DNA of 64,000 nt, taken from NCBI RefSeq assembly GCF_044324785.1, contig NZ_CP172127.1; one strand, given 5' to 3'. The notes beneath the pieces were generated by a model, which saw only the letters and a list, made by a program, of their open reading frames with translations, had not been told where the DNA came from and did not search any database. Source of the stretch: Escherichia coli (GTDB taxonomy: Bacteria; Pseudomonadota; Gammaproteobacteria; Enterobacterales; Enterobacteriaceae). Shown one piece after another: positions 19,799 through 20,596 of the stretch. Both the position numbers and the translations under genes were made by a program. Within the stretch, counting starts at the first letter, position 1. The number at the start of each line of letters is the position of its first letter.

Positions 19799-20431
19799 AT
19801 GTTTGACGTTTCGTTGTTAAATCTGCCATGGGCAACACTGGTGACCCTGACCAGTGGCTATATTGGGTATTTTATTGCGAATGTGGGACTGAAGGATCAC
19901 CACAAGCCCATTGAGGTGACTTTTTCTTCGCTGATTTTTGGCCTGACAGCAATGATGGCTTACCAGGCTGTTATGTGGGCAGGTCTGAATGCCTGGCTGG
20001 CAACACCACCAGCACTTCTGTGTGCCGTTACATGCGGTGCGTGGTGGCGCAGGTACGGTCGCAAATGGATGTACAGATTACTGTGGAATAATGATATTTC
20101 ATGGTCTGACGATACCAGCTCAGCATGGCAGGCAATGTTTGATCAAACAGGCTTCAGCGTTACCGAGGTCAGAGTGATTCTTCGCGATGGTTCCGGTATG
20201 ATGTCACGGCTGCCAGGGAACTTTGAAGAGTGGCCTAACGGTCCGTTTACCCTGGGGAATAAAGGCGATATGGTTCTTTACGTCACGCACAGCAGCCCTT
20301 CAGGCAGTAACGAATGGGAAGAGTATAAAGGCGTGGTTGATAAGTACTGGGGAGCTCTGGCAACCTATATTCCAGCAGATCAGATTGCCAGAGTGGAGAT
20401 CAGGCGCGTTCGTGCAACGAACGATGAATGA
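19799..20431 (+). CDS. membrane protein moron (3 TM N-terminal, soluble C-terminal domain)
   Basis: ATG 19799 with AGGGAG 5 nt upstream, directly after terminator; three hydrophobic segments in first 90 aa. Confidence 0.55.
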   Translation: MFDVSLLNLPWATLVTLTSGYIGYFIANVGLKDHHKPIEVTFSSLIFGLTAMMAYQAVMWAGLNAWLATPPALLCAVTCGAWWRRYGRKWMYRLLWNNDISWSDDTSSAWQAMFDQTGFSVTEVRVILRDGSGMMSRLPGNFEEWPNGPFTLGNKGDMVLYVTHSSPSGSNEWEEYKGVVDKYWGALATYIPADQIARVEIRRVRATNDE

Positions 20432-20434
20432 TGT

Positions 20435-20596
20435 TTATTTTTTCCCTGGGGCAGGGGCTGCCGGCATAGTGGTTTTATTGGCAGAGGAAGACGATTCTCC
20501 TTTTCTACCGGAATCGCGCTCGAACGTCACGATGTGCTTGCTTTTGGGCTTTTCTGAGTAATCCAGGCTATCATGCTTATTGTTTTGAGTAGTCAT
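20435..20596 (-). CDS. small hydrophilic ORF (53 aa), convergent with moron
   Basis: ATG at 20596 (minus) with AAGGA upstream; low-complexity Ser/Lys-rich; below ORF-track cutoff. Confidence 0.2.
   Translation of the reverse strand: MTTQNNKHDSLDYSEKPKSKHIVTFERDSGRKGESSSSANKTTMPAAPAPGKK

Follow-up and report, generated by a model that had tools for sequence, protein, structure and literature searches.

The right end of a transposable prophage in the Escherichia coli chromosome raises the question of what kind of DNA lies behind its last early gene and what this DNA does for phage or host. The stretch analyzed here, in the following called the window, comprises 64,000 nucleotides of contig NZ_CP172127.1 (RefSeq assembly GCF_044324785.1). 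It consists of E. coli chromosome with a transposable prophage of the BcepMu type, which ends at position 20792 and is followed by host DNA from position 20793. A preliminary description had noticed a membrane-protein gene behind the activator gene mor and a small open reading frame (ORF) converging on it, and had taken the two for independently expressed cargo. According to the genome comparisons described below, the segment from approximately 19645 to 20723 (about 1.08 kb) is a mobile moron of two genes, carried by this prophage at the end next to mor.

The membrane protein and its micropeptide partner

The gene announced for position 19799 does begin there and opens an ORF of 210 codons; an identical gene is found in RefSeq (Table 1). 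The structure of its product was modeled with AlphaFold2 (36 homologues; predicted local distance difference test score, pLDDT, 84.6). The model exhibited helices at residues 11–28, 37–60 and 65–97 and a beta-rich domain at residues 119–205. It agrees with the hydropathy profile on three transmembrane (TM) helices followed by a soluble domain, as had been proposed. No lysine or arginine precedes TM1, the first loop contains the sequence KDHHK, and five lysine or arginine residues follow straight after TM3. Hydropathy and the positive-inside rule thus predict an N-out, C-in topology and, therefore, a cytoplasmic soluble domain. In the predicted structure this domain is a small, strongly bent barrel of five strands which can be superposed on Sm proteins. 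The preliminary description had reported a soluble domain of roughly 120 residues that it did not recognize. The domain itself stands, but it is now recognized as an Sm-like barrel.

A profile search against 1.84 billion cluster representatives (family clusters defined at 50% identity) retrieved 522 clusters at E ≤ 1e-3 and 204 at E ≤ 1e-30. The homologues have a length of about 200 amino acids, match over the full length and are all annotated as hypothetical. They come from Escherichia, Salmonella, Klebsiella, Citrobacter, Serratia, Proteus, Arsenophonus, Bradyrhizobium, Mesorhizobium, Devosia, Afipia, sphingomonads and others. Ten positions are near-invariant among 148 cluster representatives, namely G20, Y24, G30, W83, R84, G131, G153, G156, G185 and P192. 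Only R84 is polar, the others being glycine, tryptophan, tyrosine or proline, which argues for a scaffold or effector and not for an enzyme. The protein of the window did not match the hidden Markov model (HMM) of the integral membrane family DUF6338 (PF19865) even at E ≤ 10. Weak matches at E ≤ 1e-3 were obtained for 12 of the 36 homologues and 15 of the 148 representatives, the best at 2e-6. Judged by these searches, the membrane protein is a member of a large, unnamed family bordering DUF6338, and we treat this family as a neighboring subfamily. Both share the length class and the layout of TM helices plus soluble domain. Filing the protein under DUF6338 explains nothing, since that family is itself without an assigned function.

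The convergent ORF of 53 codons, reported before as rich in serine and lysine, was found again and is also annotated in RefSeq. Its product contains eight lysine and eight serine residues and has a net charge of +4. The stop codons of the two genes are separated by 3 nucleotides. Most of the distinct loci, at which the large protein is 37–100% identical, likewise carry an ATG-initiated ORF of 40–62 codons on the opposite strand, with a stop-to-stop gap of −20 to +7 nucleotides. At the distant loci L059 to L061 (numbers with L denote loci of our comparison) similar small ORFs lie 47–57 nucleotides away or overlap. From Enterobacterales to Rhizobiales the small partner proteins are all hydrophilic and have a proline-rich, usually basic tail. 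The enterobacterial micropeptides contain D[YF]SExPK and end in PAAPAPGKK, PPLPLKKK, PPIRPKK and similar sequences, while those of the Alphaproteobacteria contain two or three N[YFH]xPxT repeats and end in PPPSPKKK, PAPAPKKK or PPPPKK.

The other long ORFs of the same loci served as control, and a proline tail was defined as at least three prolines among the final 12 residues. An abutting convergent ORF with such a tail accompanied 17 of 22 family genes but only 10 of 409 control ORFs (Fisher p 1.6e-19, for loci that are not phylogenetically independent). Pairwise differences among the small ORFs numbered 288, 217 and 428 at codon positions 1, 2 and 3, respectively, which indicates coding selection. 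In the alignments both genes of the cassette are under coding selection, and with this substitution pattern and a conserved sigma-70 promoter the micropeptide gene looks coding and expressed. A profile of the small proteins retrieved only unnamed small proteins of the same taxa from a database of 5.8 billion sequences. Conserved at most loci, the 53-codon ORF appears as an obligate partner of the membrane-protein gene across the Proteobacteria. The reading of the two genes as a cargo pair was supported. However, the small ORF is no incidental neighbor, and the pair is not restricted to the ends of transposable phages.

Micropeptides of a similar kind have been observed at the protein level. 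Digest-free mass spectrometry in a proteogenomic study of Pseudomonas stutzeri detected three previously unannotated proline-rich proteins of fewer than 50 amino acids with 44–114 peptide-spectrum matches, encoded immediately downstream of a DUF6338 gene on the same strand (PMC10433244). Two of them have the sequences MVSSPGSGVQTNGANPPAPANVRPAMAPTAPPPPKK and MTKKIGGNPGSPVQGGVNKETTSQRPSAPPSAPPPPPKKGG, with PPPPKK or PPPPPKKGG at the end (PMC10433244). The authors judged the peptides to be species-specific, noted their proline content, suggested a possible antimicrobial role and mentioned that DUF6338 also occurs in biosynthetic gene clusters (PMC10433244). Our loci rather suggest that a DUF6338-like gene and a micropeptide with a proline tail form a general association. 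The P. stutzeri DUF6338 gene is flanked by PPPPKK-tailed micropeptides, whose tail is shared by the partners at our loci; in contrast to the convergent cassette, its peptides are encoded on the same strand. The P. stutzeri peptide locus lies about 14 kb from DISARM-like genes for a DUF1156 methylase and helicase/PLD proteins, a hint of a defense neighborhood. Apparently two tandem small ORFs with PPPPKR and PPPPKPKR ends are located downstream of the distant family member at L061 (7765–8047, minus strand). With two tandem copies there and three peptides in P. stutzeri, the peptide copy number varies.

Extra DNA behind mor and its distribution

The gemA–mor segment was matched in 766 of 5426 complete E. 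coli genomes. A query covering the gene pair (19700–20700) was matched in 132 of the 5426, in 117 cases over at least 80% of its length, and many complete genomes carry DNA that is 100% identical over these positions (RefSeq copies). In common variants lacking the module, for example in sequence type ST131, homology stops at position 19644, within the final 13 codons of mor, and resumes near position 20724. In these variants the phage end follows about 140–260 bp beyond mor; for most E. coli relatives, in which mor is the final gene, the distance is 140–360 bp. The cassette is also absent from BcepMu, where mor is gene 1 at a distance of 364 bp from the end. The membrane-protein gene was not found in the closest sequenced phages PhiKM, KP12 and Phi06_2974B. 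The GC fraction is 0.472 for positions 19685–20700, compared to 0.553 for prophage positions 1–19684.

A moron, a concept of Juhala and Hendrix, is said to be an additional transcription unit between phage genes which is expressed from the prophage. Lower GC content, signals of its own and absence from relatives thus let the segment fit the classic moron pattern: it is present in some phages and missing from close relatives, an upstream terminator precedes it, it has its own promoter or promoters, and its base composition deviates. The moron reading of the preliminary description was borne out by the same points, namely absence from BcepMu and most E. coli relatives, 47% versus 55% GC, the upstream terminator and own expression signals. 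In other phages the cassette is inserted between structural genes, a classic moron site. It differs from the usual moron, a single gene with promoter and terminator, in being a convergent two-gene unit.

The slot behind mor also takes up other DNA. In PhiKM it contains a different ORF of 114 codons (L003 3201–3545; record 20200–20544), implausibly annotated as 'Fe2+ ABC transporter permease protein 2', which is an alternative cargo. Some relatives possess an extra gene for 95 amino acids between mor and the membrane-protein gene (Serratia marcescens, L007 7690–7977), and at L023 and L024 it is located elsewhere in the early region. Where the extra gene lies behind mor, no terminator precedes the cassette, so the slot seems to gather cargo in layers.

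The preliminary description had suggested a search for homologues at the ends of other Mu-like prophages, and such homologues were found behind mor in Enterobacterales. There the pair always follows mor, at times after one extra gene, in BcepMu-like prophages whose transposases are 45–99% identical to that of the window. The alphaproteobacterial pairs occupy other places: between head-tail adaptor and head-closure genes (L041), after terminase, portal and MuF genes (L045), after a gene for a protease-capsid fusion (L042) and between tape-measure and tail-fiber genes (L044). Family members also occur in integrase/primase-type elements (L059) and in another prophage (L061). Synechococcus phage Ssp-JY41 was the only match among sequenced phages, with a distant homologue located at its end. 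A scan of GTDB with one genome per species and strict peptide patterns yielded 12 loci only, a number that gives taxonomic breadth and not a census. These contexts show a pair that is mobile across phage types and bacterial classes.

Expression signals and the prophage end

The coordinates of the features are listed in Table 1. The intrinsic terminator reported behind mor was confirmed by a terminator scan. It is kept with compensatory stem changes in the diverged loci L024, L025, L028, L029, L047 and L051, and its A-rich 5' flank may make it partly bidirectional. A promoter-like element is nested in it, and relatives have TGGATA or TGGATT, a spacer of 17 or 18 nucleotides and TATTCT at the same place. 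This element was not flagged by the promoter scan because it matches the consensus at only 8 of 12 positions. The ribosome-binding site AGGGAG given for the membrane-protein gene is present in the sequence, as is the start codon.

The promoter of the micropeptide gene is better preserved: hexamers and position are kept in the Salmonella and Serratia relatives L029, L035, L038 and L051, with a spacer of 17 or 18 nucleotides and diverged flanks. One arm of an inverted repeat covers the ribosome-binding site and start codon of the micropeptide gene, and the other covers its −35 box. In Serratia both arms are altered together (TTGTAATCATCCTT and AAGGATGATTACAA), and the repeat is possibly a protein-binding operator. 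An RNA structure is unlikely, since one arm lies upstream of the predicted transcription start. The scan detected no terminator-like site between the two stop codons, nor on the minus strand within the large gene. If both genes are transcribed, the 3' ends of the two RNAs must consequently overlap. An inward-facing hairpin near the phage end may insulate the cassette from host read-through.

Table 1: Features of the cassette and its flanks (window coordinates).
Feature	Position	Strand	Details	Basis
mor (Mor-family late-transcription activator), final early-operon gene	19286–19684	+	PHROG 532 'late transcriptional activator', E 2e-45; RefSeq Mor family protein	
Early-operon intrinsic terminator	19727–19763	+	13-bp stem (5 G-C pairs), 5-nt loop, T-run; hairpin 19727–19757	Terminator scan
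Weak promoter-like element nested in terminator	19737–19765	+	−35 TAGACC 19737–19742 (hairpin loop), 17-nt spacer, −10 TATGCT 19760–19765	Alignment reading
Ribosome-binding site AGGGAG of membrane-protein gene	19788–19793	+	5 nt before ATG at 19799	Direct sequence reading
Predicted inner-membrane protein, 210 aa, 3 TM helices and cytoplasmic Sm-like beta-barrel	19799–20431	+	RefSeq hypothetical WP_000460689; PHROG 12870	
Hydrophilic micropeptide, 53 aa, predicted disordered, tail MPAAPAPGKK	20435–20596	−	RefSeq hypothetical WP_001571575; PHROG 15726	
Inverted repeat, 14-bp arms	20596–20669		TTGGAATCATCCTT 20596–20609; AAGGATGATTTCAA 20656–20669	Direct reading
Ribosome-binding site AAGGA of micropeptide gene	20605–20609	−	8 nt before ATG; conserved in relatives	Direct reading
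Predicted sigma-70 promoter of micropeptide gene	20640–20669	−	TTGAAA, 18 nt, TAGAAT; 10/12 match; inward from phage end	Scan
Terminator-like hairpin facing inward	20707–20725	−		Scan; consensus match only
Prophage right end	20750–20792		Direct repeats ATTTATCTCA 20750–20759 and 20773–20782, terminal ...TGATCA	ABU 83972 junction

In the RefSeq copies the rightward arm of the prophage contains repressor and helix-turn-helix genes, an rve-type transposase, an ExeA-type transposition ATPase, gam, small genes, gemA (gp16) and mor. The leftward arm starts from the divergent point with holin, transglycosylase, terminase and portal genes. The transposase shares 68% identity with its counterpart in Burkholderia phage BcepMu and 98% with the one in E. 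coli phage PhiKM (genus Bcepmuvirus). Gene order and transposase identity therefore establish the BcepMu layout, with mor outermost in the early arm. The right junction (...TGATCA) was placed by comparison with the copy of strain ABU 83972, which is inserted in rstB. The assignment of the locus to a transposable-phage end thus held, with the junction at 20792, but the gene order is of the BcepMu type and not of the Mu type. The ATTTATCTCA repeats and the terminus also occur in Serratia prophages and in E. coli prophages lacking the module, and the repeats are probably the transposase-binding sites of a BcepMu-type end.

Some observations concern the surroundings. A DNA adenine methylase is encoded between the early and late arms, where these diverge (10314–11078), probably as a further accessory gene. 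The gene disrupted by the prophage (20790–21245, minus strand) codes for a protein with a twin-arginine (Tat) signal that we take to be PhoX/DUF839-like, and its ORF continues into the phage end. Fragments of IS3-family insertion sequences (IS) lie just past the phage end (21800–24500), and an intact ORF of 338 codons (23459–24475) presumably encodes an IS5-type transposase. The insertion site is a mosaic, IS-rich region. A 144-bp piece of the phage end (window 20639–20783; L064 4001–4144) was found with about 90% identity and without phage genes on large E. coli plasmids, at 106 matching places, and on some chromosomes. On the one plasmid examined it adjoins IS1 and IS3 fragments and so looks like the relic of an old insertion.

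Known systems and possible functions

The protein of the window matched no family in Pfam, gave only a noise match to RhaT in NCBIfam (E 0.18) and was assigned only to families of unknown function in PHROGs. A profile of 148 sequences gave nothing significant against the chains of the PDB; the best values were E 0.19 for an unrelated enzyme and E 7.7 for the NfeD-type protein YbbJ. Homology to structural or tail-fiber assembly proteins, which would have spoken for a different role, was looked for and none was found. A literature search by protein accession and PF19865 returned no match, and the gene is not addressed in the BcepMu literature found. With no match to known defense, holin or structural families in these searches, the cassette belongs to no characterized system.

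Two likenesses are of architecture. The barrel shares the small SH3-like fold with the Sm, LSm and Hfq proteins, but it has no sequence similarity to them, lacks Sm1 and Sm2 motifs and is anchored to the membrane. In channels of the MscS type, too, a cytoplasmic Sm-like beta domain comes after three TM helices, so that topology and order of elements agree. The cassette protein is, however, devoid of the alpha-beta vestibule domain, and hhalign gave a probability of 0.45% against E. coli MscS, which means no homology. Thus, the resemblance is an analogy of layout.

Position as prophage cargo and architecture make a function in superinfection exclusion or abortive infection a reasonable assumption, and no more. 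In the reading that we tentatively put forward, and regard as possible, the cassette would be a membrane effector restrained by the micropeptide. The effector would oligomerize through its barrel domain and disturb the inner membrane or block DNA entry. The micropeptide would be produced constitutively from its conserved sigma-70 promoter and hold the effector in check, either by binding of its PxxPxK-type tail to the SH3/Sm-like barrel or by antisense, convergent transcription across the effector gene; both routes may be combined. An incoming phage that shuts off host and prophage expression, or the loss of a labile peptide, would let the restraint lapse. The cell would then exclude or abort the infection, and the lysogen population would be protected. 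The P-x-x-P-x-K tail motif is similar to class II SH3 ligands and the barrel to SH3/Sm folds; this correspondence serves as a lead only. That the barrel reads the tail of a constitutive micropeptide, that loss of the peptide at infection unleashes the effector, and that the family thereby represents a widespread new anti-phage system with a micropeptide as sensor or regulator, is a rather doubtful extension.

A comparable two-gene logic is known from Panoptes, where the S-2TMbeta effector OptE is toxic unless it is bound to a constitutively made ligand (PMC12657218). The cassette would share with it a constitutive ligand able to hold a toxic membrane effector inactive. S-2TMbeta effectors (Cap15 of CBASS, OptE of Panoptes) consist of an N-terminal TM hairpin and a small cytoplasmic beta-rich domain, which binds the ligand, in about 200 amino acids. 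Two relatives of the cassette protein in the AlphaFold database are named 'SMODS-associating 2TM beta-strand rich effector', and 1 of 10 distant members matches the PADLOC model of the CBASS '2TM effector' (E 0.004, TM region only). Membership in this class was rejected on Pfam, fold search and gene context. In addition, the cassette protein has three TM helices and not two, its Sm-like barrel has no detectable match to the Cap15 barrel, and its partner is a peptide and not a nucleotide synthase of the CD-NTase or mCpol type.

Several results weigh against a restrained defense effector. None of the 148 representatives matches Pfam S_2TMBeta, and the fold search against the PDB gave no structural match to Cap15 or OptE. 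In the window the membrane-protein gene is bordered by mor, by the micropeptide gene and by the phage end, with no nucleotide synthase nearby, and no cyclase was found in the other contexts examined. Neither cassette protein matched any family of PADLOC-DB v2 at E ≤ 1, and the missing Pfam match of the membrane protein counts in the same direction. The promoter within the terminator, from which the membrane-protein gene would be transcribed, is weak and was inferred by reading of the alignment only. The small ORF is missing at L032 and L050, both from symbiont-type genomes, and at L037, and one relative (L060) resides among housekeeping genes outside a prophage. HMMs of enterobacterial and alphaproteobacterial micropeptides did not detect each other significantly; a shared origin of these peptides is thus supported only by their position, orientation, composition and tail motif. 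Finally, AlphaFold2 modeling of a protein-linker-micropeptide fusion with a paired alignment of 22 rows revealed no confident docking. The pLDDT of the peptide was 31–45 and about 52 in the tail, values which speak neither for nor against binding.

Plain superinfection exclusion, in which the membrane protein alone blocks DNA entry and the micropeptide is separate or regulatory, is unlikely. Superinfection exclusion was among the functions that the preliminary description had suggested. The predicted inner-membrane location with N-out, C-in topology and the cargo position with own signals agree with it, and P22 SieA, T4 Imm, HK97 gp15 and lambda RexB are likewise prophage-encoded inner-membrane proteins expressed apart from the lytic program. 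However, no sequence, profile or fold similarity to these four or to any other known exclusion protein was detected. Across classes the two genes are strictly co-inherited, which argues for a share of the peptide in the function, and since the cassette is found on unrelated phage types, exclusion cannot be specific to Mu-like DNA entry. Of the exclusion and abortive-infection membrane proteins SieA, Imm, gp15 and RexB, none is known to be paired with a proline-tailed micropeptide.

We likewise consider it improbable that the cassette is a toxin-antitoxin or addiction module with a membrane toxin and, as antitoxin, the labile micropeptide or an antisense transcript, a module that would stabilize the prophage or the cassette and not defend against phages. 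The tight, horizontally mobile two-gene unit, the stronger and conserved promoter of the small gene and the convergent, abutting or overlapping 3' ends without a terminator in between would suit such a module. A few family members also match the membrane toxin CptA faintly in Pfam (Cpta_toxin, best E 4e-4, 1 of 148), which points the same way. Convergent orientation is unusual for toxin-antitoxin pairs acting by protein-protein contact, though, and the three loci without the small ORF carry an apparently intact membrane-protein gene. Toxin-antitoxin and defense roles are not mutually exclusive.

It is very unlikely that the micropeptide itself is the active product, directed at a host or competitor target, with the membrane protein as anchor, exporter or immunity factor. 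The basic, proline-rich tail, the variable copy number (three in P. stutzeri, two in tandem at L061), and the abundance and suggested antimicrobial role of the proline-rich P. stutzeri peptides, together with DUF6338 in biosynthetic gene clusters (PMC10433244), would be in line with this. The peptide has no signal or leader sequence, however, the 3-TM protein without conserved polar residues is no recognizable transporter, and no maturation or export genes were linked in the contexts examined.

An accessory function in the lytic cycle, such as holin/antiholin-like lysis timing, transposition control or genome ejection, is a poor prospect as well: the topology is that of class I holins, 1 of 148 relatives matches Phage_holin_9 (E 8e-4) and the cassette adjoins the mor regulator and the transposase-binding end, but a lysis cassette of holin, transglycosylase and spanin-like genes is already present in the prophage at 6.9–8.7 kb (holin and SLT genes at 7.5–8.7 kb), closely related and evidently functional phages lack the cassette, and it occupies unrelated positions in other phage genomes. 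A holin proper was rejected on architecture and genome position, since class I holins have a short charged C-terminus, whereas the folded cytoplasmic barrel domain of 110 amino acids is no holin feature, and since the gene lies outside the lysis cassette.

Prophage morons are a main source of newly found defense and virulence functions. Both cassette proteins are uncharacterized, and the pairing of a membrane protein with a micropeptide was previously undescribed. Hopping between unrelated phage types and bacterial classes is the behavior expected of a self-contained conflict module. The cassette is present in clinically relevant E. coli lineages, for example in the asymptomatic-bacteriuria strain ABU 83972. 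Should it be inactive, it would still be a clean example of a two-gene moron at the end of a transposable phage. Should a role in defense or as a toxin be confirmed, the known repertoire would gain a membrane effector regulated by a micropeptide, and the DUF6338 neighborhood would gain a function. The cassette is thus a candidate, open to experimental test, for a new phage-exclusion or toxin-like system encoded by prophages.

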